Below, piece by piece: positions 7,120 to 44,118 of a stretch of 64,000 bases of DNA (within the stretch, counting starts at the first letter, position 1; every line of letters begins with the position of its first letter). The notes beneath the pieces were generated by a model. The model did not search any database. It saw only the letters and a list, made by a program, of their open reading frames with translations, and had not been told where the DNA came from. Source of the stretch: Verrucomicrobiota bacterium (lineage in GTDB: Bacteria > Verrucomicrobiota > Verrucomicrobiia > Limisphaerales > UBA11358); contig DAIRTX010000008.1 of assembly GCA_036803685.1 (NCBI GenBank), forward strand, positions 2,198-66,197, in the 5' to 3' direction. Made by a program: the position numbers and the translations under genes.

Positions 7120-8171
7120 AGGGGTCGGTTCTTACAATTGACAATCCGCGCCAACTTGGCCAGTCTTTGATTGTCGTTTGCCAAACACTTATGCCAAGAC
7201 CACTGCGAGTTGAGTTTGCCGGAGCCATCTACCACCTGATGAGCCGGGGAGATCGACGTGAACCGATCTTCTTTGATGATGAGGATCGCAAGACTTTCCT
7301 CCGCACGCTGGGCGAGGCATGCGAAAAGACCGGCTGGCAGGTCCACGCCTATTGCCTGATGGAAAATCATTTCCACTTGGTGGCCGAAACGCCGCAGCCA
7401 AACCTGGTGGCCGGCATGAAATGGTTGCTCGGCACTTACACCGGAGGTTCAATCGCCGACATCAGTTCTTCGGGCATCTTTTCAGCGGACGCTACAAGTC
7501 GTTGGTCGTTGACGAGCGCACGCCGGGCTATCTGCGAACTGCTTGCGATTACGTGCATCTGAATCCGGTGCGGGCAGGGTTGGTCCAGGCGGACGCCCCG
7601 TTGTCAGCTTATCTGTGGAGCAGCTTTCCGCTCTATGTGTCCGTGAAACGCCTTCCGCCCTGGCTGCGCGTGGATCGCTTGCTGGGCGAGCACGGAATTC
7701 AGGAGGATTCTGCCAAGGGTCGCATAGAGTTCCAACGCCGGATGGAACAGCGCCGCAGCGAAGGTGAATCGCCGGAGATGCTGGCCTCCCTGCGCCGGGG
7801 ATGGCGTTTGGGCGCGGCGGATTTTCTCCAGCGCCTGACGGAGAAGCTCGGGCGTCGCGGCCAACCACACGAACTGGCTCGCGAACGGCGCGAGACGGAC
7901 ACGGAGCGCGCCGACCAGATCGTCCAGCAAGGCCTGCAAGAAGTGGGATGGTCTGAAGCGGACTTGGACCGTCACCCCAAGGGCCATCCTCACAAGGTCG
8001 CTGTTGCACACAAGCTCCGGCGCGAAACCCCGATGACACGCGACTGGATTGCCAAGCGATTGCGCATCGGCAGTGCCAGCTACGTGTCGCACCTGCTAGC
8101 GAGGCCGTGATCGAGGTTCGCTGACTCCTTCATGCGAGAGCGGCGATTGTCAATTGTAAGAACCGACCCCT
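7120..8171 (+). mobile_element. HUH/Y1 transposase (RAYT/IS200-like) unit bounded by perfect 27-bp inverted repeats
   Basis: AGGGGTCGGTTCTTACAATTGACAATC at 7120-7146 has its exact reverse complement at 8145-8171. The repeats flank a single frameshifted transposase-like gene. Confidence 0.7.
7191..8110 (+). pseudogene. IS200/RAYT-like HUH tyrosine transposase with DnaA-C-like HTH tail, interrupted by one frameshift near 7443-7445
   Basis: Frame 3 gives MPRPLRVEFAGAIYHLMSRGDRREPIF...HAYCLMENHFHLVAET (HUH motif)...LLGTYT. The protein then continues in frame 2 as RRFNRRHQFFGHLFSGRYKSLVV...CDYVHLNPVRAG (Tyr motif)...ETPMTRDWIAKRLRIGSASYVSHLL. Two nucleotides stand where one codon is expected between GTYT and RFNRRH. 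Confidence 0.75.
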
Positions 8172-13414: not shown

Positions 13415-13417
13415 ATT

Positions 13418-13470
13418 GGTAGGGCTGCGCTGCCGCGCAGCCAGGCCGAGCGGCAGCTCGGCCCTACCGT
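13418..13470. repeat. GGTAGGGC...GCCCTACC palindromic REP between convergent genes (possible bidirectional terminator)
   Basis: The outer stem GGTAGGGC/GCCCTACC encloses two inner hairpins, CTGCGC-TGCC-GCGCAG and GGCCGAGC-GGCA-GCTCGGCC. Confidence 0.6.
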
Positions 13471-13475
13471 TAAAA

Positions 13476-14057
13476 TCATATCCGCTTCGCCAGTTCGGCC
13501 TGGCTCTTCGCAAAGACTTCCTTGTGCAACGAATTGCCGTGCGCGTCCATCGTGACGACGGTGGGGAAATCCTGCACTTCAAATTCCCAAATCGCCTCCG
13601 GAGCGCCGAATTCTTTCATCATGTAAACATTGCGCACCTTCTTGATGCAGTCGGCCAGCACCTGCGCCGCGCCACCGACCGCGTGCAGATACACGCAGCC
13701 GTGTTCCTTGCAAGCCGCCAGCGTCCGGTCGCCCATGCCGCCCTTGCCGATGACGCCGCGGAGGCCATATTCCTTGATGATTTGGGCCTGATACGGCTCT
13801 TCGCGGATGGAAGTGGTCGGGCCGGCGGCGGTGGCTTTCCAAGAACCGTCGTCCTGCTTCATCACGACCGGGCCGCAGTGGTAAAGAATCCCGTCGCGCA
13901 GATTCACGCCCGGCGGCAGCTTGCCGCCCTCGTGCAAATACTTGTGCATCGCGTCGCGCCCGGTGAACACGACGCCGGAAATCAAAACCTCGTCGCCGAC
14001 TTTCAGCGCCCGGATTTTTTCTTCGGTGAAGGGAAAACTCAATTTAATCATAGTCAT
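13476..14057 (-). CDS. Fe-S hydro-lyase beta subunit (class-I fumarate hydratase / tartrate dehydratase C-terminal-domain type)
   Basis: 193 aa: MTMIKLSFPFTEEKIRALKVGDEVLISGVVFTGRDAMHKYL...YHCGPVV...GVIGKGGMG...YLHAVGGAA. Confidence 0.88.
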   Translation of the reverse strand: MTMIKLSFPFTEEKIRALKVGDEVLISGVVFTGRDAMHKYLHEGGKLPPGVNLRDGILYHCGPVVMKQDDGSWKATAAGPTTSIREEPYQAQIIKEYGLRGVIGKGGMGDRTLAACKEHGCVYLHAVGGAAQVLADCIKKVRNVYMMKEFGAPEAIWEFEVQDFPTVVTMDAHGNSLHKEVFAKSQAELAKRI

Positions 14058-14069
14058 TCTTGAATTGCG

Positions 14070-14399
14070 TCAACGCTTCTTGCGCGGTGGTTCGTCCTTC
14101 AAAATCAAGGGCGCAGTTTTCCGTTCGCGATAGAGCTTCTCGCGCGTCCGACGCACCTCGGCGATGATCGGATCGTGAACCCGATACGGCTTGCCCCGGG
14201 GCCGCGGCGGTTCTGCGGCCTCGCGCGCTCGCAATCGCGCCTGCAACTCCTCCGGCGAATTCACCATCGGCCCGGCGTGAGGATGTTCCTCCAGCCATGC
14301 CTCCATCTGATCGAGGAAACGCCGCGTGTCACCGTTCGCCTCCGCCGCCAGACGTTCTTTGATGACTTCGAGTTCCTGAAGAATCGGATCGGCTTTCAT
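14070..14399 (-). CDS. small DPI(L/V)xE-motif protein, paralog 3 (internally duplicated motif); putative antitoxin-like
   Basis: 109 aa: MKADPILQELEVIKERL...HDPIIAEVRRTREKLY...LKDEPPRKKR. The last 23 nt are identical to those of the 14631 gene. Confidence 0.55.
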   Translation of the reverse strand: MKADPILQELEVIKERLAAEANGDTRRFLDQMEAWLEEHPHAGPMVNSPEELQARLRAREAAEPPRPRGKPYRVHDPIIAEVRRTREKLYRERKTAPLILKDEPPRKKR

Positions 14400-14405
14400 G
14401 GAAAA

Positions 14406-14618
14406 CTAGCCTTCTTGCTTTGGCTGGTCGCGGAGCATCAGTGCATTTTCCCGGCTTTCCGCCCATTCGTTTGCGTCCTTCACGAGAGGATGCGCCGGGT
14501 CCTCCATGCGCTCGCGCGTTCGCAAGTCGGCGAAAATGGCGTGGATGTCGTAGTTAAACTGGCGTGCCAGTTTATCCCGGATGCGTCGCACTTCTTCTAC
14601 AATCGGATCGTCATTCAT
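14406..14618 (-). CDS. small DPIVEEVRR-motif protein, paralog 2; putative antitoxin-like
   Basis: 70 aa: MNDDPIVEEVRRIRDKLARQFNYDIHAIFADLRTRE... This pattern is one I recognise from small ORFs next to PIN genes in Planctomycetota and Verrucomicrobiota, from memory and unverified. Confidence 0.55.
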   Translation of the reverse strand: MNDDPIVEEVRRIRDKLARQFNYDIHAIFADLRTRERMEDPAHPLVKDANEWAESRENALMLRDQPKQEG

Positions 14619-14630
14619 ATTGACCCTGCT

Positions 14631-14876
14631 TCAACGCTTCTTGCGCGGTGGTTTGTCGTTGAGAACCATTGCCGCCTGCGCAACGCGTTGGCGTTCTTTC
14701 TCGGCCACGAGTTGGCGCAGTTCTTCCGCCGAACGGATCACTTTTCGCCCCGCCTTTTCCTCGGCGTTGGTGATTTTGTCCAACTTCGCAAAATAAGCAG
14801 CCGGGTCGGCGGCCATTTCGCGCGACAACTGGTCTTTGACGCGCCAGAGTTCTTCAAGTATCGGGTCAGCTTTCAT
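14631..14876 (-). CDS. small DPILEEL-motif protein, paralog 1; putative antitoxin-like
   Basis: 81 aa from the internal ATG: MKADPILEELWRVKDQLSREMA...LNDKPPRKKR. It starts 4 nt after the PIN stop. The track ORF (to 14975) overlaps the PIN gene and is probably over-extended. Confidence 0.55.
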   Translation of the reverse strand: MKADPILEELWRVKDQLSREMAADPAAYFAKLDKITNAEEKAGRKVIRSAEELRQLVAEKERQRVAQAAMVLNDKPPRKKR

Positions 14877-14880
14877 CGTC

Positions 14881-15351
14881 TCATATTTCCATGAGTTCTT
14901 CCGGTGTGCAAACGCGCGGCAGGTGTAAGCCGCGTTCGGCAATAAATTTTTCCAGCCGATGCAAAACCAGCGCATTGACCAGATGCCGGAAATTCCACGT
15001 CAGCAGATAGTCTACCGCAGCACAGGTGGCGACCGCCAGATGATTCGCATCCGCACGGGCAACGGCGGGAAACAATCCGCGCTCCAGCAAATCTGCCGCG
15101 AGCTTGGCGCTTTCCGCTCCGCCCGAAATCAACGGCAATCCCTGCAACACAGCCATCCGCTTCGCCGCCATGCCGGCATCTCCCTCCATCGCCTCGGCGA
15201 TGACTTCCTGCGAAATCACACAGGCGAACTGCCCGCGCTGCTCCGCCCACCATTCCTTTGTGAGTTGCTGCCGCCAGGCCGTCACCGGATTACGGCTCGA
15301 CCGCGCCACCAGATAACTAACCATGCTCGTCTCAATGTAAACCGATTCCAT
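14881..15351 (-). CDS. PIN-domain protein, VapC-like type II toxin
   Basis: 156 aa: MESVYIETSMVSYLVARSSRNP...ADANHLAVATCAAVDYLLTWNFRHLVN...CTPEELMEI. This architecture matches a VapC-family group I recognise. Confidence 0.7.
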   Translation of the reverse strand: MESVYIETSMVSYLVARSSRNPVTAWRQQLTKEWWAEQRGQFACVISQEVIAEAMEGDAGMAAKRMAVLQGLPLISGGAESAKLAADLLERGLFPAVARADANHLAVATCAAVDYLLTWNFRHLVNALVLHRLEKFIAERGLHLPRVCTPEELMEI

Positions 15352-15354
15352 ATT

Positions 15355-15465
15355 TCAGTAAACTGCATCGCGCCCGGTGAACACGACACCGGAAATCAAC
15401 ACCTCGTCGCCGACTTTCAGCGCGCGGATTTTTTCTTCGGTGAAGGGAAAAGTTAATTTTTTCAT
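15355..15465 (-). pseudogene. Ghost copy 2 of the hydro-lyase beta gene 5' end (36 codons plus stop)
   Basis: It encodes MKKLTFPFTEEKIRALKVGDEVLISGVVFTGRDA-VY*. The roughly 80-nt core differs from the functional copy only at synonymous positions. The stop (15355-15357) lies 3 nt before the PIN ATG (15349-15351). Confidence 0.85.
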
Positions 15466-15503
15466 GGGATATCCGGCTTAAAAAGCATTCCGTTGGTTCA
15501 AAC

Positions 15504-16196
15504 TCATCCCTTGGTCCGGGGTTTGGTTGGAGAAAACAAAACGAACACCTTTACGTCGAAGGCCCGAAACAGGTCGCGAAACCGGGTTTCGATCATCTGT
15601 TTGGCGTCGCCCACCGCCAGGGTTGACTCGGCGCTTTTGCGGGCCTTCTCTTTGAGTTGAATCAATATCTGCTGGTGATCGCCGGTGGTCAGCCAGTTGA
15701 GATAACCGTCTTCCTCCAGATAGTAATTTGCCTCCGGGTTGATGGTTTCCAGCGACAGGATTTTGGGTTCGGGCAGGATGATGGTCACCACCTGGTTGGA
15801 CGGGTTGTAGGCGGCGAAAAATTTGGCGGCCAGATCGAACCCGATTTTTGCCACAAACGTCTGCTCCGCAATGATGCGTTTGGTGCTATGCAGATCGGTT
15901 TTTTTATAATCGATTATCTCGCAAATATTTCTTTGCAGCACCGCCAGTTCGGCGATGGGCGTGGCGTCACAGACGGTGGTCGAAGAAACCACATTGACCT
16001 GCGACTGGAAAATGGCCTTGAAGGCATCAATCCCGTGTTTGCCAAAATCAAACACCTGTTCAACGATTTTGCCGGGAGCTTCCACCGTCTTTACCGCCAC
16101 CCTTGTAACCGGCCGGACCACCGTCAGGTAAATGGCAAAGGCAACCGCCACAATCAACAAGGCGATGCCGATAAAAATCGTAAGCGTCTTATTCAT
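15504..16196 (-). CDS. DUF4230-like membrane-anchored protein
   Basis: 230 aa with a single N-terminal TM (LTIFIGIALLIVAVAFAIYLTVV). The body resembles DUF4230 (...IAELAVLQRNICEIIDYKK...VAKIGFDL...). Confidence 0.55.
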   Translation of the reverse strand: MNKTLTIFIGIALLIVAVAFAIYLTVVRPVTRVAVKTVEAPGKIVEQVFDFGKHGIDAFKAIFQSQVNVVSSTTVCDATPIAELAVLQRNICEIIDYKKTDLHSTKRIIAEQTFVAKIGFDLAAKFFAAYNPSNQVVTIILPEPKILSLETINPEANYYLEEDGYLNWLTTGDHQQILIQLKEKARKSAESTLAVGDAKQMIETRFRDLFRAFDVKVFVLFSPTKPRTKG

Positions 16197-16199
16197 GTC

Positions 16200-16322
16200 T
16201 CAATCTCCCAATTCACATCTCGCGTCACGCCCGGTGAACACGACGCCGGAAATCAAAACCTCGTCGCCGACTTTCAGCGCGCGGATTTTTTCTTCGGTGA
16301 AGGGGAAGGAAAGTTTAGTCAC
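16200..16322 (-). pseudogene. Ghost copy 3 of the hydro-lyase beta gene 5' end (GTG start, 40 codons plus stop)
   Basis: It encodes VTKLSFPFTEEKIRALKVGDEVLISGVVFTGRDA-RCELGD*. The stop (16200-16202) lies 3 nt before the DUF4230 ATG (16194-16196). Confidence 0.85.
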
Positions 16323-16344
16323 AAAATGGAATCCAGTTGGCTTA

Positions 16345-17244
16345 TCAGCGATTTCGTTTTTTGTGTTTGAGAAAAACAGCTCTCAATCGTGCCACATCCT
16401 TTTGCTTACCATTCATTTGGTGCAACATTCGGTGGCAGTTAGCGCAAACTGTTATCAAGTCCTTCGGTTTGTTTTCCACTTTGCCGCTCAACTGGCTGAG
16501 CGGCTTAAGGTGATGCGCTTCAGCAAACTCTTCGCCCAATTCGCCATAAACCTCCTCAAACTTCATTCCACAGACTTGGCAGCGAAAATCATCACGAGCT
16601 TTGCACAAGCGAGAAAGCGCGGAACTTCTCTCGCGTAAAATATGAGTTCTAACAATTTTACGATTCTCAATCCGTGGGAAATCTGAATAAACAGCTCCAG
16701 CCATTTTTGTGGAAGGCAAATTACTAAGAATTTCCTCAAAAAAGTTTACGGCCTTGCGCACAACGGAACGCACCGCTTTCGGTCTGTCTGCTTTTTGAGA
16801 ATCATAAACTCCAAAAAAGTAATGTCGCCCATAATATTCTTCGTAATACCTAGCTGCGTAATCGCGAAGATCAAAAGAATGCTTAAGTGACCAAAAACCA
16901 GATTTGACCTTCTCAAAATCATTGTTGAAGAGTTCCTTATTTGGCTTCAGGTAAGATGGAGCACCACCAATCAAGCGCTTGATTGGAGCACGCCGAGAAC
17001 AATAAAAACCGTAATAAAAACGACGGCTTTTACGCGATGGATAATGATCCAGCCAAATTTCAATGCGCGGCTGAGCACGCCCTAATCCAGCCACCGCACA
17101 AAACCAACCACCTACATAGTTTGTTCTTATCTTCAACCGACTCACAGGACTAATGGATGTTCCTTCGCACACGGCGCGCAGTTCATCTCTCAACGCTTCG
17201 GCGGCGATTCGCAATAGTTTCTTGTCGCGTCGGTTTGAGTTCAT
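16345..17244 (-). CDS. HNH endonuclease with an uncharacterised ~200-aa N-terminal domain
   Basis: 299 aa with the C-terminal CQVCGMKF...AEAHHLKPLS...VCANCHRMLH (CxxC...HH...CxxCH). The N-terminal domain has no motif I can name. Local GC is about 44% against about 60% in the flanks. Confidence 0.75.
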   Translation of the reverse strand: MNSNRRDKKLLRIAAEALRDELRAVCEGTSISPVSRLKIRTNYVGGWFCAVAGLGRAQPRIEIWLDHYPSRKSRRFYYGFYCSRRAPIKRLIGGAPSYLKPNKELFNNDFEKVKSGFWSLKHSFDLRDYAARYYEEYYGRHYFFGVYDSQKADRPKAVRSVVRKAVNFFEEILSNLPSTKMAGAVYSDFPRIENRKIVRTHILRERSSALSRLCKARDDFRCQVCGMKFEEVYGELGEEFAEAHHLKPLSQLSGKVENKPKDLITVCANCHRMLHQMNGKQKDVARLRAVFLKHKKRNR

Positions 17245-17287
17245 ACAAATTCAATTTCAAAAGCGTTAAACAAGACGCTTTTAGCGT

Positions 17288-18166
17288 TCAGTAAAGCCAC
17301 TTCTCAATTTTTCCCTCCGCATCCAGTATTACGCCCTGACGCCGATAGGCCCAGCACATGTAGCTGATGCTCACGAAATACGACGCGGGCAGACGGTTCG
17401 CCGCGCAAATCTTCACGCCCAGCAACGTCGTCTTGCCGCCAAATCCCATCGGGCCGATGCCGAGCTCGTTCGCCGTTTTCAAAATGTCCTGTTCCAGCGC
17501 GTCGAGCTTCGGATTCGGATTGCGGTCGGGAATCAGCCGCAGGAATTGGATCTTGCTCATCTCGTAGCTGGTCGCGCGGTCACCGCCGATGCACACGCCG
17601 AGAATGCCCGGCCCGCAGCCCTTCCCCTGCGCCTGCAACACCGCGTCGAGAATCGCCTTGCGGCAGCCGTCGAGGTCGCGGTTCGCGTTGAGCTTCTCGC
17701 TCGGCAACGAGTATTGCGCCCCGACGTTTTCGCAACCGCCGCCCTTGAGCACCAACCGCACGCTCACTTCCGGCGAGCGATGTTGATGAAAATGAAACGT
17801 GGGCGCACCAGGCCCGACGTTCGTGCCGTCGTTGACGCCCGTGAGCGAGTCCACGGAGTTTTGGCGCAGATAACCTTTTTTCGTCGCCAGCTTCACGGCT
17901 TCCTTGGCCGTTTCCTCGAACGTGATCTGGTCGAAGCCGACCGGGCAATCCACAAAAAACAGGATGCTGCCGGTGTCCTGGCAAATCGGCTGCGACTTGC
18001 GTTTGGCGAGCTGGATGTTCTGGTCAATGATCTTCAGCGCGCTCTCGGCAATGGTGCCTTTTTTCTCCTGCTCCAGCGAAGCGAGGATGGACTGGTTGAC
18101 GTCGTCGGGAATTTCCGCCGAGGTGCGCCGGATCAACTCCAGCAGGGAATTTTGTAATTCGCTCAT
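17288..18166 (-). CDS. Fe-S hydro-lyase alpha subunit (class-I fumarate hydratase / tartrate dehydratase N-terminal-domain type)
   Basis: 292 aa with ICQDTGSILFFV, LKGGGCENVG and GVCIGGDRATS. Confidence 0.88.
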   Translation of the reverse strand: MSELQNSLLELIRRTSAEIPDDVNQSILASLEQEKKGTIAESALKIIDQNIQLAKRKSQPICQDTGSILFFVDCPVGFDQITFEETAKEAVKLATKKGYLRQNSVDSLTGVNDGTNVGPGAPTFHFHQHRSPEVSVRLVLKGGGCENVGAQYSLPSEKLNANRDLDGCRKAILDAVLQAQGKGCGPGILGVCIGGDRATSYEMSKIQFLRLIPDRNPNPKLDALEQDILKTANELGIGPMGFGGKTTLLGVKICAANRLPASYFVSISYMCWAYRRQGVILDAEGKIEKWLY

Positions 18167-18286
18167 AAAGCTGCGGATAGCGTAAGACCTTCACACGTCA
18201 GCGTCAATTAAGTGATGTTCGGTGGGTGCGCCGCTGTCACGGCGCACGGCGGCGCGGCAGCACCGCCCTACCAAAGTTAGCGTCAA

Positions 18287-20781: not shown

Positions 20782-20908
20782 ATACCAATTCCCAGAGACA
20801 ATCGGTGCAATGGGTAGGGCGGCGCTGCGGCGCCGCCGGGTATGATGGCCGCGCAGCAACGCGGCCCTACCGTCGGGAAATGTGCCGATTATTATTGAGA
20901 AATGGTAT
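20782..20908. repeat. MITE-like palindromic element, copy A (127 bp)
   Basis: The termini are ATACCAATTCCC...GAGAAATGGTAT and the core is TAGGGCGGCGCTGC...GCGGCCCTAC. It is nearly identical to 40924-41051 and lies about 100 bp upstream of the pfkA start. Confidence 0.8.
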
Positions 20909-21011
20909 AACACCCTGCTTTACAAAACCGAGAGGCATTCAATTTGATTGGAAGCAAAAAGTTGTTCTCGACAAAGAACCGCTTTTTGCGGATTCAAATG
21001 TGGCGGAGACA

Positions 21012-30673: not shown

Positions 30674-30822
30674 ATACCAATTCCCAGAGACAATCAGCGC
30701 AATGGGTAGGGCGGCGCTGCCTGCTCGCGATCTATCGGAGCTGCGCCGCCGGGTGTGATGGCCGCGCAGCAGCACGGCCCTACCGTCTGGAATAGGTGCC
30801 GATTATTATCGGGAAATGGTAT
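30674..30822. repeat. MITE-like palindromic element, copy B (149 bp, with a ~22-bp extra internal segment)
   Basis: It has the same termini and core as copy A and ends 22 bp before the lpxD ATG. Confidence 0.8.
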
Positions 30823-31880: not shown

Positions 31881-31980
31881 CAATGGTAGGGCGGCACTGT
31901 CTGCTCGCGATCTATCGGAGCTGCGTCGCCGGGTATGATGGCCGCGCGGCAACGCGGCCCTACCGGTTGGGAAATGATAT
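31881..31980. repeat. MITE-like element, copy C (core only, terminal arms missing)
   Basis: CAATGGTAGGGCGGCACTGTCTGCTCGCGATCTATCGGAGCTGCGTCGCCGGGTATGATGGCCGCGCGGCAACGCGGCCCTACC... shares the extra segment of copy B. Confidence 0.7.
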
Positions 31981-32023
31981 GACTTCCGTCCCGGGTGATT
32001 GGCAATCAGGAGATTGAACCGGC

Positions 32024-40923: not shown

Positions 40924-41051
40924 GATACCAATTCCCAGAGGCAATCGGGGCAATGGGTAGGGCGGCGCTGCTGCGCCGCCGGGTATGATGGCCGCGCAGC
41001 AGCGCGGCCCTACCGTCTGGGAAATGTGCCGATTATTATCAGGAAATGGTA
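40924..41051. repeat. MITE-like palindromic element, copy D (128 bp)
   Basis: ATACCAATTCCCAGAGGCAATCGGGGCAATGGGTAGGGCGGCGCTGC...GCGGCCCTACCGTCTGGGAAATGTGCCGATTATTATCAGGAAATGGTAT. Confidence 0.8.
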
Positions 41052-41145
41052 TGATTTGTTTCGGACGGAGAAGAATGAGCCTCCTCACCCGTCTTCGTTA
41101 CGCTGCGTCGCGGCAAGCGTCGGCTGCTACAATAAATTCCAAATT

Positions 41146-42278: not shown

Positions 42279-43265
42279 TTACCCCGAAGAATCGAGAATC
42301 CGCTGGGCTGAATTGTGAATGGCCTCAACCAATTCGCGCGGCTTCAGAACTTTTGCATCCCCGCCCCAGCTCAGAACCCAGCGTTCGATTTCCATCAAGC
42401 TGGAAAGTTCCATCCTCAATTCCACTCCCCCGCCCTTCAAGTCGCGCAGTTGCTGCGATTCGTGCCATTTCTTTTCGCGGACGTAATCGGCGGCGCGCGC
42501 GTTGAAACGGATGACGACTTCATATTCGCCTTCGCCGGAATGGACGCCAAAACTGTCGCGCAAACGTTTTTCGAGCGAGAACTTTTGCGGGCGCTCGAAG
42601 GTTTTGCCGGTCAGCTTCACGGATTGCACGCGCGCGGGAACGAAGGTGCGGATGTCCTTGCGCGCGTGGTCGTAGGCGAACAGATACCATTCGCCGTTGA
42701 TGTTCGCCAAATGATACGGGTCAACGAGGCGCGGCTCGGTTTCCTTTCGCCCCGGCTTGCGATAAGCCAGTTCAATTTGTTGCCGATGCGCGGCCGCCCG
42801 GGCCAGCATGTCGAAAATTTCAAGATTCAAAATCGGCTCGGCGCGGGTGCGGAAGGAAATCGTCTGCCCGACGTCGGCGAGATTGAGCGAAATGGTGTCG
42901 GGCAGCGACTGCTCCATTTTCCGGATGGCGCTGAGAATCGGTTTCTCGAAGCTCGTGCCGCGATATTGCTGGAGCGCCTTTTCGGCGACGATGAGCGCGA
43001 AGAGTTCGCCCTCGGTAATCTGGATGTTCGGGAACGCGCTGACTTCCTCGGTGTAAAAATATCCGATGCGCGCGCTGTCATATTCAACCGGCAGGCCGAG
43101 CCGGTCGCGCATGAACTCGATGTCGCGATGAATCGTCTTGGTGGCGACTTCGATCTCGCGCGCGAGCGTGGAGGCGTTGGGGAATTTGCCGGACTGAAGC
43201 GCCTGATGGATGCGCAACATCCGTTCCAAAGGCGGACGTGACCGCAGCGACTCCACCGTCGTCAT
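42279..43265 (-). CDS. WYL-domain transcriptional regulator (HTH-WYL-WCX)
   Basis: Taken from the internal ATG: MTTVESLRSRPPLERMLRIHQALQSGKFPNASTLAREIEVATKTIHRDIEFMRDRLGLP (HTH)...RLVDPYHLANINGEWYLFAYDHARKDIRTFVPARV (WYL). Confidence 0.8.
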   Translation of the reverse strand: MTTVESLRSRPPLERMLRIHQALQSGKFPNASTLAREIEVATKTIHRDIEFMRDRLGLPVEYDSARIGYFYTEEVSAFPNIQITEGELFALIVAEKALQQYRGTSFEKPILSAIRKMEQSLPDTISLNLADVGQTISFRTRAEPILNLEIFDMLARAAAHRQQIELAYRKPGRKETEPRLVDPYHLANINGEWYLFAYDHARKDIRTFVPARVQSVKLTGKTFERPQKFSLEKRLRDSFGVHSGEGEYEVVIRFNARAADYVREKKWHESQQLRDLKGGGVELRMELSSLMEIERWVLSWGGDAKVLKPRELVEAIHNSAQRILDSSG

Positions 43266-43284
43266 TCCCGGTTGGGATTTGTTC

Positions 43285-44118
43285 TCATGCCGGGCATTCA
43301 TTTTTTTCAGGGCACGCCGGTGCATAGAGCAATGGATCCTGCCGGTAAAACTCCTGCAACTCGGCATATAACGCCGGATGCCGTTCTTTCAATTGCCCGG
43401 GCCTCTCGAAAAAACATTCCGTGGCCACGGCGAAAAACTCCGCTGGATTTTGAGCACCATACGTATCCAAGACCGTCTCCCGCCCGTCTTCAGCCGCGCG
43501 GCGAAGTTGTTGGAATTCTGCGCTCAGAACTTTGGCCCACGTTTGGTAACGGTGGCGCGTTTGCCACAAGTTTGACCCGCCGAGGAGCGGAGCGCCGTCA
43601 GCGATGCCGTCCTCCTGATCCAGTTGGTGCGCAAACTCGTGAATGACCAGATTCCGGTTCTTGTCCAGTTCCACCGCGCCGGCGATCGCCCCATCCCACG
43701 CCAGGACCACCGTCCCGTGCGGCCAGGATTCGCCGCCTCGCGCCTGGTCTCCTTCGATAATCGTCCCATCTTTTTCCTGATGCCACGTTCTGGCGATGTA
43801 GCTGGAGGGATAGACCAGGATGCTGCGCAGGCGGGGGTAGCAGTCCGTGTCCCGGTGCAGCAGCAACAGGCACGCCTGCGCCGCGATCAACACCTTCACT
43901 TCATCGGTGACCTCCTGCCCGTCACAGCCCTCAAACCGCTTCTCCGCCAGGAAAACGTGAATGTGGCCTTCCAATTCCTGGCGATCCGCCGGTGGGAGGC
44001 GGGAATACATGGAATAACGGCTCATAAGAATGTCGCGCCATTCTGAAGGGAACGGCTGGCTCCGAATGCTGTCACGGCGGCGTTTTTTAAGAAATCCGAA
44101 CATGCCAGTCCCGAACAC
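43285..44118 (-). CDS. mtfA: M90-family zinc peptidase MtfA
   Basis: 277 aa with LVIHEFAHQLD, NPAEFFAVATECFF and FYRQDPL, which parallel E. coli MtfA IHEVAHKLD / ECFAVLSEYFF / FYQQDPL. Confidence 0.75.
   Translation of the reverse strand: MFGTGMFGFLKKRRRDSIRSQPFPSEWRDILMSRYSMYSRLPPADRQELEGHIHVFLAEKRFEGCDGQEVTDEVKVLIAAQACLLLLHRDTDCYPRLRSILVYPSSYIARTWHQEKDGTIIEGDQARGGESWPHGTVVLAWDGAIAGAVELDKNRNLVIHEFAHQLDQEDGIADGAPLLGGSNLWQTRHRYQTWAKVLSAEFQQLRRAAEDGRETVLDTYGAQNPAEFFAVATECFFERPGQLKERHPALYAELQEFYRQDPLLYAPACPEKNECPA

Follow-up and report, generated by a model that had tools for sequence, protein, structure and literature searches.

Genes and truncated gene starts at the locus

The window, a 64-kb stretch of DNA, carries on its minus strand genes for the alpha subunit (17288-18166; PF05681, E 6e-70; TIGR00722, E 1.6e-64) and the functional beta subunit (13476-14057; PF05683, E 2e-57; TIGR00723, E 8.8e-51) of what is, judging from these profile matches, a two-subunit class I Fe-S fumarate hydratase or tartrate dehydratase-type hydro-lyase. 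Six cargo ORFs, all on the same strand, separate alpha from beta, and two truncated copies of the beta-gene start, here called ghosts, lie among them. The alpha gene is the upstream anchor of the hotspot described below, and an identical alpha protein was found on nine contigs. REP-like repeats bracket the operon.

Cassette 1 begins 43 nt past the alpha stop codon without a ghost in front of it and consists of a gene for a 299-aa HNH nuclease (16345-17244; PF01844, E 1.3e-8) with weak PADLOC matches to a type IV REase and to the ZorE HNH protein. Its G+C content dips to 0.42 to 0.46, in line with the low value reported in a first-pass annotation of this DNA. Ghost 3, a 40-aa ORF (16200-16322), follows with beta codons ~3 to 36 and a 7-codon tail (RCELGD*), and its stop codon lies 3 nt ahead of the ATG of cassette 2, a gene for a 230-aa DUF4230 membrane protein (15504-16196; PF14014, E 2.2e-12). 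Ghost 2, a 36-aa ORF (15355-15465) formed by the beta-gene start and VY*, likewise stops 3 nt ahead of the ATG of the first gene of cassette 3 (14881-15351), which encodes a 156-aa protein (MESVYIETS...) from a family present in many arrays. This protein is possibly a PIN-like toxin. The window copy had no Pfam, NCBIfam, or PADLOC match, a PDB profile search gave nothing, and a single-sequence AF2 model was poor; eight homologues occur in the species set, and one homologue matches PIN at an E value of 0.0049, below the Pfam cut-off. Cassette 3 also holds three small ORFs that are tandem paralogues: a (14631-14876; 81 aa as called in public assemblies; repeats D3 and D4) and the called ORFs b (14406-14618; 70 aa) and c (14070-14399; 109 aa, ending in PPRKKR*). 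The family of ORF a has 10 members in the species set and no Pfam match, the DNA of ORF b is 92% identical to the copy at locus L002, and ORF c ends 12 nt upstream of the beta ATG.

A repeat search of the window returned one family of three direct 101-nt copies, with the functional reference copy at 13951-14051, within the first ~105 nt of beta, and the others in ghost 2 (15365-15465; 92% identity) and ghost 3 (16222-16322; 90% identity). The first-pass annotation had described the same three copies and the same two ghost ORFs, along with third-position differences and a break after GRDA. In our alignment, the copies match exactly between TTCCCCTTCACC and GACGC except at third codon positions (CGG/CGC, GTT/GTG, GGC/GGT, CGC/CGT, GAC/GAT, and GCG/GCA). 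Similarity tapers off around the start codon and ends sharply after GRDA. No other gene-start repeat of this kind was found in the 64-kb window, where the repeat is confined to the alpha-beta locus.

That the ghosts are assembly artefacts or a generic dispersed repeat unrelated to the gene, two possibilities that the annotation had raised against itself, has a negligible probability. We found no support for either. At least eight samples from JGI, ENA, and NCBI, processed with different pipelines, independently yielded this array, long-read MAG contigs as long as 674 kb also contain ghosts, and in 250 loci the repeat was found solely beside alpha or beta.

The alpha-beta gap is a hotspot for foreign cassettes

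Across Limisphaerales/Pedosphaera-type Verrucomicrobiota, the alpha-beta gap of the fumarate hydratase operon is a hotspot for foreign cassettes. Among 104 loci from this group, 37 are empty, with alpha and beta at most 35 nt apart, and these provide the uninterrupted junction that the annotation had proposed to look for; the remaining 67 are filled with 63 to 6,738 nt of variable cargo and contain zero to four ghosts. A protein search yielded 270 clusters of ghost ORFs, and the top 120 are all 33 to 68 aa long. The arrays are chains of units, each composed of cargo and the beta-gene start downstream of it. A complete gene extends from the final beta start alone, and the earlier starts are truncated ghosts. 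From one array to another, cargo and its downstream beta start, as far as the break, are conserved as a unit, and units between repeats measure 0.5 to 1.5 kb. In 18 of 21 arrays with ghosts, cargo separates alpha from the first ghost, so that n cassettes are accompanied by n-1 ghosts. The annotation had placed the HNH unit outside the ghost-bounded intervals; this arrangement is the rule and not the anomaly that it had been taken for.

The identifiable cargo across arrays is mostly toxin-antitoxin pairs and anti-phage genes (MazF, DUF4258/DUF2283, VapC-like, AAA_21 with DUF4276, GmrSD_N, FRG, TIR, Zeta, Fic, and Abi_alpha), and the cassettes inside one array are unrelated to each other. Ghost stop codons usually precede the following start by 0 to 15 nt, and the interval is between -4 and +15 nt for 35 of the 50 ghosts measured; because packing is this tight, the cargo is probably coexpressed with the operon. 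Some cassettes have promoter-like sequences of their own (TTGCCA-17-TAGATT). In some species, large reverse-strand housekeeping genes occupy the gap. The host lineage spans a whole order of soil and freshwater Verrucomicrobia.

Ancestry of the ghosts and the route of cassette acquisition

A ghost was nearest to the functional copy of its own host in only 3 of 38 cases, and a median of 15 foreign functional copies were closer to the ghost than that of the host. The nonsynonymous/synonymous ratio was 0.57 for ghosts and 0.28 for functional copies. Both comparisons support the view in the first-pass annotation that ghosts resemble working gene starts, and they point to other lineages as the source. 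In 13 of 36 cases, the ghost and not the functional start matches the nearest relatives of the host. Near-identical hosts carry other arrays, as the annotation had suggested might be found. Locus L002 encodes a beta protein identical to that of the window next to a different array (alpha, 91%; PIN-like gene, 67%; small ORFs, 92%; beta, 99.6%), and L144 is 98.5% identical over beta and ~3.5 kb of downstream flank (4.1 kb in total), with flanks at 97, 84, 94, and 98.5% and a wholly different array. The uneven identities in both comparisons speak for mosaic recombination around the locus.

These relationships bear on a purely intragenomic origin, in which tandem duplication of the segment from alpha 3' to beta 5' was followed by divergence of the copies or replacement of their contents, without horizontal import of units. 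Such duplication would be expected to yield the novel joint seen in L035-type ghosts, in which a beta start is fused to an alpha tail, and the three small ORFs of the window are indeed tandem paralogues. However, the resident functional copy is usually less similar to a ghost than are functional copies from other lineages, the cassettes of one array are mutually unrelated, and close relatives have entirely different arrays. We consider this origin improbable. The serial, additive acquisition of foreign cassettes, each unit with a beta-gene start, that the annotation had proposed is supported by the data.

The HNH cassette and its ghost form a block that is also found at L161 (98.5% identical) and L138 (93.9% identical). 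At L161, the block extends over the last 128 nt of alpha, HNH, and the ghost, corresponds to window positions 17415-16228 at 98.5% identity, and is located behind a foreign alpha gene (90% identical) and a new cassette, so that the native alpha end is now itself a ghost. L161 is a direct example of a gene end put to use as an arm, the native end having been displaced by an incoming cassette. Duplicated alpha 3' ends form a separate class of ghosts with its own boundary, and the same alpha-ghost junction was inherited in seven loci. The ghost at L035, like ghost ORFs P0003 and P0023, continues directly into the last codons of alpha (...IEKWLY*; p = 0.003), and the DUF4258 cassette has its junction at ACGAGGGCG/ATGAGGACG; both point to an illegitimate origin of junctions. 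The tail of ghost 3, CGCGAGATGTGAATTGGGAGATTGAGAC, is similar to the L035 ghost tail, which is the alpha 3' end (p = 0.056 for ghost 3 itself), and that of ghost 2, GTTTACTGAAAT, may represent the alpha end of the same genome, CTTTACTGAACG, with which it shares 10 of 12 bases.

Considering these observations together, we favor, with only modest confidence, additive homologous or illegitimate recombination in which gene-end copies are portable homology arms, a process that resembles the formation of Rhs/T6SS orphan arrays. Units would pass between related genomes via ordinary homologous recombination, and the arms would be highly conserved gene ends, namely the 5' end of beta, whether functional or ghost, and less often the 3' end of alpha. 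With a donor carrying a ghost, cargo, and a beta start with its gene in this order, the ghost would pair with the real beta start of the recipient and beta with beta. Such pairing would add a cassette and replace none, and the recipient's own gene start would remain as a ghost. The ghost-cargo junctions would stem from a small number of rare illegitimate events, and at least one of these may have joined a beta start to an alpha 3' tail and duplicated the alpha-beta junction. No dedicated integrase would be involved.

Several observations count against this recombination model. Breaks in 119 ghost peptides, with at least 12 tail families, fall within ~4 codons (between TG and R up to the end of GRDA), and independent illegitimate events should scatter more; a few ancestral junctions with decay at the edge could account for the clustering. 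Tails statistically similar to the alpha tail are limited to L035 and a few other ghosts, and the 11-mer shared by alpha and beta, GGGCGYGACGC, is exact in just 2 of 104 loci, with common substrings at chance level. Within the population that the window comes from, every contig carries the array unchanged, so no turnover was seen directly, and no recombination event with a crossover mapped inside a beta ghost was caught.

A rival reading is site-specific accretion, the model of the first-pass annotation, in which integrase-less CIME-like or cassette-like mini-elements, each with a replacement beta 5' end, would be moved at a core near ACC GGG CGY GAC GC in beta by a recombinase (tyrosine, serine, or another type) whose gene lies at a different place in the genome. 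Its topology fits the direct repeats with a target gene end, the empty sites, and the serial arrays; many tail families break within ~12 nt; the conserved unit of cargo with its downstream beta start is consistent with it; and the 13 of 36 ghosts that match the nearest relatives of the host are expected after replacement of the 5' end. However, there is a second junction position after HKYLHE, and the alpha 3' ghosts have a boundary of their own. At L078 and L138, cassettes adjoin without a ghost between them. DUF4230 homologues lie directly after alpha at L073 and L097 and after a small ORF at L078 and L138, giving DUF4230 three different kinds of left neighbor. An array's first cassette is usually not preceded by a ghost, and in some species large reverse-strand genes occupy the gap.

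Searches for the machinery of such a system also spoke against it. No recombinase was detected among the scanned cargo families of the species-level arrays, in the Pfam gene tables of two further arrays, or in the 8- to 10-kb flanks of arrays from three lineages; one encoded at another place in the genome may have escaped these searches. No viral contig carried the core, and the repeat had neither an attC-like fold nor conserved inverted repeats, with whole-repeat fold z-scores that were not significant. Integration at an att site by an integrase or integron-like system, as first proposed, was thus not borne out, and we regard site-specific accretion as rather unlikely.

The annotation had seen no recombinase in the window. 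This was upheld for the 30 other large ORFs but overlooked a frameshifted HUH Y1_Tnp gene at 7167-8110, ~6 kb from beta. An HUH enzyme (Y1, IS200/RAYT-like) could in principle mediate hairpin-guided single-strand recombination, with cuts where a hairpin in the beta start, GCGTCGTG-N9-CGCGACGC, has its 3' foot and at a similar hairpin in the alpha 3' end. In the functional copy, an 8- to 10-bp hairpin is predicted whose 3' foot falls at the break, some alpha genes contain GCGTCA-GGGCG-TGACGC, and REP-like repeats are present on both sides of the operon. We nevertheless consider this mechanism very improbable: Y1_Tnp is frameshifted and absent from array neighborhoods in other species, ghost 2 and many functional alleles do not preserve the predicted hairpin, the break is in part retained in alleles unable to form it, and the fold scores noted above lend it no significance.

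Relation to known arrays and hotspots

Variable defense cargo at a fixed position between conserved genes is typical of core-gene-flanked defense and horizontal transfer hotspots, and in tycheposon-type islands, arrays of partial tRNA genes mark successive insertions. The locus shares with these the fixed-position defense cargo and the partial target-gene copies that mark successive insertions. In contrast, it is located within an operon, in the gap between the genes for two subunits of a single enzyme, its partial copies are protein-coding 5' ends, and no element-encoded recombinase was seen. As in integrons, the arrays are compact, mostly co-oriented, gene-sized, and rich in toxin-antitoxin modules, with insertion downstream of a fixed point and possible cotranscription. 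They differ in lacking intI and attC hairpins, in having coding gene starts as repeats, in the promoter-like sequences of some cassettes, and in the reverse-strand genes found in the gap of some species.

ICE, IME, and CIME undergo accretion in tandem through site-specific recombination at a target gene's end (PMC5704250), and there too the terminal copy alone belongs to an intact gene. Unlike in these elements, no integrase-bearing member was present in any array whose genes were examined, the units are very small (0.5 to 1.5 kb between repeats), the repeat is ~100 nt of coding sequence without att-like architecture, and the first unit has no repeat on the alpha side. SXT, described in PMC2654960 as a ~100-kb conjugative element, likewise targets the 5' end of a conserved protein-coding gene; it encodes a tyrosine recombinase of its own, Int, and uses attP and attB sequences that are almost the same, whereas nothing comparable was found here.

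The orphan-module arrays of Rhs, CDI, and T6SS effector-immunity systems ("C-terminal displacement") have been proposed to form by displacement, through homologous recombination together with homology-facilitated illegitimate recombination (PMC5361080). Like them, the arrays described here accumulate serial modules at one locus anchored on a conserved gene segment, keep displaced pieces as orphan strings that each include a conserved-gene fragment, have modules closest to those of other strains, and apparently involve no dedicated recombinase. In contrast to those systems, the arrays are anchored on a housekeeping metabolic gene at its 5' end, with mirrored polarity; the cargo consists of toxin-antitoxin or defense genes unrelated to the anchor gene and not of toxin tips; and the displaced fragment is a nonfunctional gene start and not an immunity gene with selective value.

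Beta-start repeats and cargo within the fumarate hydratase operon

The minus strand of the window encodes the alpha subunit (17288-18166; PF05681, E 6e-70; TIGR00722) and the beta subunit (13476-14057; PF05683, E 2e-57; TIGR00723) of a two-subunit class I Fe-S fumarate hydratase/tartrate dehydratase, with TIGR00722 and TIGR00723 both exceeding their model cut-offs. We observed a gap of 3.2 kb between the two genes that holds six ORFs, all in the same orientation: those for an HNH nuclease (16345-17244; PF01844), a DUF4230 protein (15504-16196) and a 156-aa protein whose family is at best PIN-like (14881-15351), followed by three paralogous small ORFs (14631-14876, 14406-14618 and 14070-14399). 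A repeat search of the window detected a 101-nt direct repeat in three copies, one at the start of beta (13951-14051) and two in truncated extra copies of that start, ghost 2 (15365-15465; 92%) and ghost 3 (16222-16322; 90%). Similarity among the aligned copies tapers around the start codon and stops sharply past the GRDA codons, a point we call the break, and differences within the conserved core of the repeat all fall at third positions, as the first-pass annotation had reported. Ghosts 2 and 3 are uninterrupted ORFs of 36 and 40 aa, each with its stop 3 nt ahead of the next cargo ATG. The drop in G+C noted for the HNH unit was also borne out (0.42-0.46). These findings confirm the initial observation of beta-start repeats and cargo at this locus.

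The same array was independently assembled in at least eight public samples and is therefore not an assembly artefact. Within the window, the repeat was found at the alpha-beta locus alone, which argues against a generic dispersed repeat. On these grounds, either an artefact or a generic repeat is an extremely improbable explanation.

A PDB profile search with the 156-aa PIN-like protein gave no match, Pfam gave one sub-threshold match, and the single-sequence AF2 model (pLDDT 42) was unusable. The small ORFs at 14070-14876 belong to a family of 70-118 aa proteins that begin MKADPILEEL and mostly have the C terminus PPRKKR or a close variant, with homologues in loci L002, L070, L078, L089, L123, L138 and L243. 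This family has no Pfam or NCBIfam match and occurs in one to three tandem copies after the PIN-like gene; its members may be antitoxins encoded in reversed order.

A hotspot that is empty in some loci and filled in others

Searching proteins with ghost 3 as the query gave 270 clusters; among these, the best 120 were all 33-68 aa long, and many were annotated as 'fumarate hydratase subunit beta'. Their first ~33 residues are common and are followed by at least 12 diverging tail families. Hundreds of 33-68 aa database entries under this annotation are ghosts and not genes. Scanning a degenerate DNA pattern of the core against one genome per species and metagenome contigs yielded ~240 stretches, nearly all labelled Verrucomicrobiota (subdivision 3, Limisphaerales or Pedosphaera). 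Eight 'binchicken' TPA MAG contigs (L018, L025, L028, L051, L061, L069, L072 and L081) bear the title 'uncultured Bifidobacteriaceae' or 'Bifidobacterium sp.' despite their verrucomicrobial locus, and the L012 and L067 records are titled Limnocylindrales and Acidiferrales, respectively; all of these records have probably been mislabelled or mis-binned.

We counted occupancy in 104 loci holding both an alpha end and a beta start. The site was empty in 37, where 1-35 nt containing a GGAG ribosome-binding site separate the alpha stop from the beta ATG. The other 67 were filled with inserts of 63-6,738 nt and contained no ghost (43 loci), one (13), two (9), three (1) or four (1). The first-pass annotation had proposed serial integration at the beta 5' end and had suggested looking in relatives for an uninterrupted alpha-beta junction or for different cargo at the same place. 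Both exist, none of the refuting conditions that it named is borne out, and cargo differs even between very close relatives. Locus L002, whose beta protein is identical to that of the window, has the order alpha, DUF2971, ghost, PIN-like allele (67% identity), two small ORFs and beta, while L144 matches the window at 98.5% identity across 4.1 kb beginning at the beta start but carries a wholly different array.

Cargo representatives included MazF/PemK with an antitoxin, DUF4258 with DUF2283, VapC-like PIN with RHH, and RelE/ParE-like pairs. They also included Doc/Fic, Zeta toxin, AAA_21 with DUF4276, GmrSD_N (DUF262), FRG, two TIR proteins, a STAND-like ATPase, DUF2806/Abi_alpha, Nmad3 and a bAvd-like protein. 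The identities of these representatives mark the hotspot as a depot of toxin-antitoxin (TA) and defence genes. The gap of three species instead contains one large reverse-strand, putative housekeeping gene in place of TA or defence cassettes, encoding proteins of 1192 aa (L162), 932 aa (L147) and 550 aa (L055), the last resembling a membrane transporter. The alpha-beta junction accepts other kinds of insertion or rearrangement as well.

Units measure 0.5-1.5 kb between repeats, and those common to several arrays extend from a cargo gene across the next beta start to the break. Of 21 non-redundant arrays with ghosts, 18 have cargo between the alpha stop and their first ghost, so that n cassettes carry n-1 ghosts. 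The position of the HNH unit outside the ghost-bounded intervals, which the first-pass annotation had found puzzling, is thus the usual arrangement. The arrays are compact: in 35 of 50 cases, the distance from a ghost stop to the start that follows is -4 to +15 nt, and terminator-like sites are fewer than expected (4 versus 8.9 +/- 2.8 in shuffled sequence). This compactness suggests that cargo may be coexpressed with the operon.

Foreign units, ghost junctions and array growth

Over 81 nt, the functional beta copy of the same host was the best match of a ghost in only 3 of 38 cases, and a median of 15 of 205 foreign functional copies were closer to the ghost than the resident one. The units are foreign, and the ghosts are not recent copies of the resident gene start. 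Because ghosts are seldom closest to the resident copy, we rejected gene conversion with that copy as the process keeping them intact, and we regard tandem duplication within the genome alone as an improbable origin for the repeats. Nonsynonymous and synonymous codon differences from the consensus stood in a ratio of 0.57 for ghosts versus 0.28 for functional copies, in a sample whose detection favours conserved copies; ghosts are thus under relaxed constraint, yet far from decay. The ghost resembled the nearest relatives of the host more closely in 13 of 36 cases and the functional start did so in 23; therefore, the imported copy may be either one.

The arrays and their flanks are mosaics produced by recombination. 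Identity between the window and L002 is 91% in alpha, 67% in the PIN-like gene, 92% in the small ORFs and 99.6% in beta, and successive segments of the L144 comparison are 97%, 84% and 94% identical before the array and 98.5% identical after it. The clearest single case of such exchange is L161, in which a block of the last 128 nt of alpha, the HNH gene and a ghost is 98.5% identical to window positions 17415-16228. This block sits downstream of a complete alpha (90% identity) and a cassette of a PIN'-like gene and a small ORF. The layout implies that a window-type alpha end, recognizable by the diagnostic GTAATACTG, was displaced and made a ghost by incoming DNA with its own alpha. L161 thus looks like the expected product of recombination with a duplicated gene end as one homology arm.

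Considering these findings together, we favour, with moderate confidence, homologous and illegitimate recombination in which gene-end copies serve as homology arms. A few ghost-cargo joints would have been made by rare illegitimate events. Thereafter, a ghost of ~100 nt and the beta gene could act as the two flanking homology arms, allowing a donor segment of ghost, cargo and beta start with beta to join a recipient array through ordinary homologous recombination. The beta start of the recipient itself would stay behind as a new ghost, and ghosts of the alpha 3' end would be the mirror case. We also asked whether phylogenetic affinity changes sharply at the break within functional beta genes, a line we dropped because there were too few close pairs; in the one clear case (L208/L214), the tract ends near nt 192, away from the break, and other comparisons were dominated by the variable first codons. 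Candidate crossovers inside ghosts (blocks of at least 96.5% identity) were likewise set aside, as the handful of events were all trivially due to ghost structure.

The L035 ghost runs from GACGC into the 3' tail of alpha, TGGATGTGAATGGAATATTGAGAAGTGGCTTTACTGA (shuffle p = 0.003; joint GACGC/TGGATG), and the ghost ORF peptides P0003 and P0023 end in AGCEWNIEKWLY before the stop, which is also the alpha tail. At least one junction family is thus a beta start joined straight onto an alpha 3' tail, the novel joint expected from duplication of an alpha-beta junction. The tail of ghost 3 is similar to that of L035 and the tail of ghost 2 to the alpha end of the window genome itself; both matches are short and not individually significant, and they may reflect likeness to alpha 3' tails. 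We rejected the broader proposal that every ghost tail is a decayed alpha tail: shuffling supported L035 and a few others alone, and the remaining tails were linked by a chain of likeness drawn by eye from L035 through ghost 3 to the 'AATCGGGAGTTGAAA' tails, on which we do not rely. Other ghost tails are the promoter-like region of the cassette itself, such as TTGCCA-17-TAGATT ahead of MazE-like antitoxins. An exact 11-mer common to alpha and beta was also discarded as a recurrent joint, being exact in 2 of 104 loci with longest common substrings at chance level. In L118 and L195, the ghost tail contains a 12-nt tandem duplication, GTGACGCCGCAG twice, exactly at the break (~1085-1110 of the L118 array), which hints at a slippage-prone junction sequence.

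The main rival to homology-driven exchange is a trans-acting site-specific recombinase with a core near ACC GGG CGY GAC GC and CIME-like accretion (PMC5704250), which we consider a real but lesser possibility. Its strongest support is the position of the break, which falls within four codons in 94 of 119 ghost peptides across many tail families. We tentatively attribute this clustering to a few ancestral joints with decay at the edge of homology; variation at the edge is concentrated in the last codons, R-D-A. A single recombinase site fits poorly with a second junction class, in which DUF4258 cassettes join the beta start later, past HKYLHE, at 8/10 microhomology, or with the alpha 3' ghosts of seven loci, which start at codon ~251, share the same joint and each lie behind a cassette of a PIN'-like gene and a small ORF. 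It is rather unlikely that the beta start is a true site for either a chromosomal trans-acting enzyme or a programmed RecA-dependent capture pathway.

No array or flank that we examined encoded a recombinase. We detected no Phage_integrase or other recombinase among the ORFs of the window array, in another 30 of its large ORFs, in the Pfam tables of genes within 8-10 kb of arrays in three lineages (L003, L255 and L261) or in the cargo families scanned, a scan that covered representatives from species-level arrays only; inspection of the ORFs of the longest arrays revealed none that we recognized. The core had zero matches in viral contigs, and a phage donor was accordingly set aside. Folding all three repeat copies as single-stranded DNA on both strands gave z-scores of -1.24 to +1.44, which are not significant; the repeat is therefore not attC-like. 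Cassettes also abut without ghosts in L078 (VapBC, small ORF, DUF4230) and L138, and the left neighbour of DUF4230 varies among the alpha stop, a ghost and a small ORF. With no recombinase in the arrays and flanks examined, no viral core and no attC fold, and with ghost-less abutments, a non-unique junction and alpha 3' duplicates, the locus does not bear out the att/integrase or integron-like mechanism put forward initially.

The claim of the first-pass annotation that the window has no visible recombinase held for the array and the 30 other large ORFs, but the window does contain an HUH Y1_Tnp gene (IS200-like) on the plus strand at 7167-8110 (PF01797, E 2e-11) that is split by a frameshift into two frames of 131 and 263 aa. 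The same frameshift is repeated in the independent assemblies L003, L004 and L128. This gene and the location of the break at the foot of a local hairpin would suit HUH/hairpin recombination. However, the gene is frameshifted, was found in contigs of the window species only and is not near the arrays of other species, and the hairpin is not conserved and has no significant fold z-score, making HUH/hairpin recombination very improbable. IS200/IS605- or RAYT-type HUH elements need an intact Y1 protein and conserved subterminal hairpins at their ends; here, the Y1_Tnp gene is frameshifted and the hairpin at the break varies.

Comparison with known systems

Integrons have intI adjoining the array and attC palindromes between cassettes, whereas the fumarase arrays have no intI-type recombinase in the ORFs and flanks examined and their beta-start repeats have no such fold. 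Integron cassettes are co-oriented and mostly promoterless; here, the TA and defence cargo that could be identified all shares one orientation, but promoter-like sequences are present in MazEF-like and VapBC-like cassettes, and the gap genes of L162, L147 and L055 lie on the reverse strand. The direct-repeat layout and the empty sites in relatives are shared with tandem accretion of ICEs, IMEs and CIMEs. In those systems, some elements carry the cognate integrase, of which we saw none in the arrays and flanks examined, and crossover occurs at a single invariant point; here, 94 of 119 breaks lie within four codons, a second junction class lies past HKYLHE, and the alpha 3' ghosts have a boundary of their own at codon ~251. 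SXT integrates into prfC at its 5' end (PMC2791158), and a site-specific recombinase acting at the beta 5' end would mirror that insertion.

Orphan arrays in Rhs, CDI and T6SS loci are proposed to arise by displacement through homology-facilitated illegitimate and homologous recombination (PMC5361080). As in those loci, each displaced unit comes with a repeated fragment of the anchor gene, and the closest counterparts of the units belong to other strains. Orphan-array modules comprise toxin tips and immunity genes that belong to the anchor itself, whereas here the anchor is metabolic and the cargo unrelated. Illegitimate recombination is expected to leave microhomology at novel joints; the L035 joint is at GACGC/TGGATG and that of DUF4258 cassettes at 8/10 microhomology, while the alpha/beta 11-mer is at chance level. 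The fumarase hotspot would be a case of the same displacement logic at a housekeeping gene's 5' end, and the locus is best filed with displacement or orphan arrays, gene-end accretion and core-gene-flanked defence hotspots.

We found no paper in the literature describing an alpha-beta fumarase hotspot. Specialists would find unusual its place inside the operon of a two-subunit enzyme, a recurrent boundary formed by a coding gene start, the very small units and the spread over a bacterial order. The hotspot is conserved across that order within a central-metabolism operon, and defence and TA genes are stored there and exchanged between species. If duplicated gene ends do act as homology arms, they would turn homologous recombination from 'replace' to 'add', giving integron-like arrays without an integrase and a simple, general route of defence-island growth that has perhaps been overlooked elsewhere. 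Short ORFs duplicating the first 30-40 codons of an adjoining core gene would be a searchable signature. A dedicated enzyme, if one exists, would make this a cassette system of a new class, analogous to integrons but with a protein-coding gene start as its 'attC', and a capture system would link TA and defence cassettes to the signals by which an essential metabolic operon is transcribed and translated.

The last ~40 codons of beta are duplicated ~2 kb downstream of the intact gene in L070 (1142-1261) and L234 (4564-4683), as detected by tblastn with beta residues 154-193; gene-end ghosts may therefore also arise on the far side of the operon. The window also contains at least six copies of a REP-like dispersed repeat of ~45-100 nt (GGTAGGGC...GCGGCCCTACC) at 13416-13470, 18228-18274, 20782-20909, 30674-30822, 31920-32002 and 40925-41052. 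Two inverted copies bracket the alpha-to-beta operon exactly, one after the beta stop and one before the alpha start, and the Y1_Tnp gene may be a decayed RAYT partner of these repeats. Distant from the array, a minus-strand gene at 42279-43367 adjoins an M90 peptidase gene and encodes a WYL, WCX and HTH regulator, a type often linked to defence systems.
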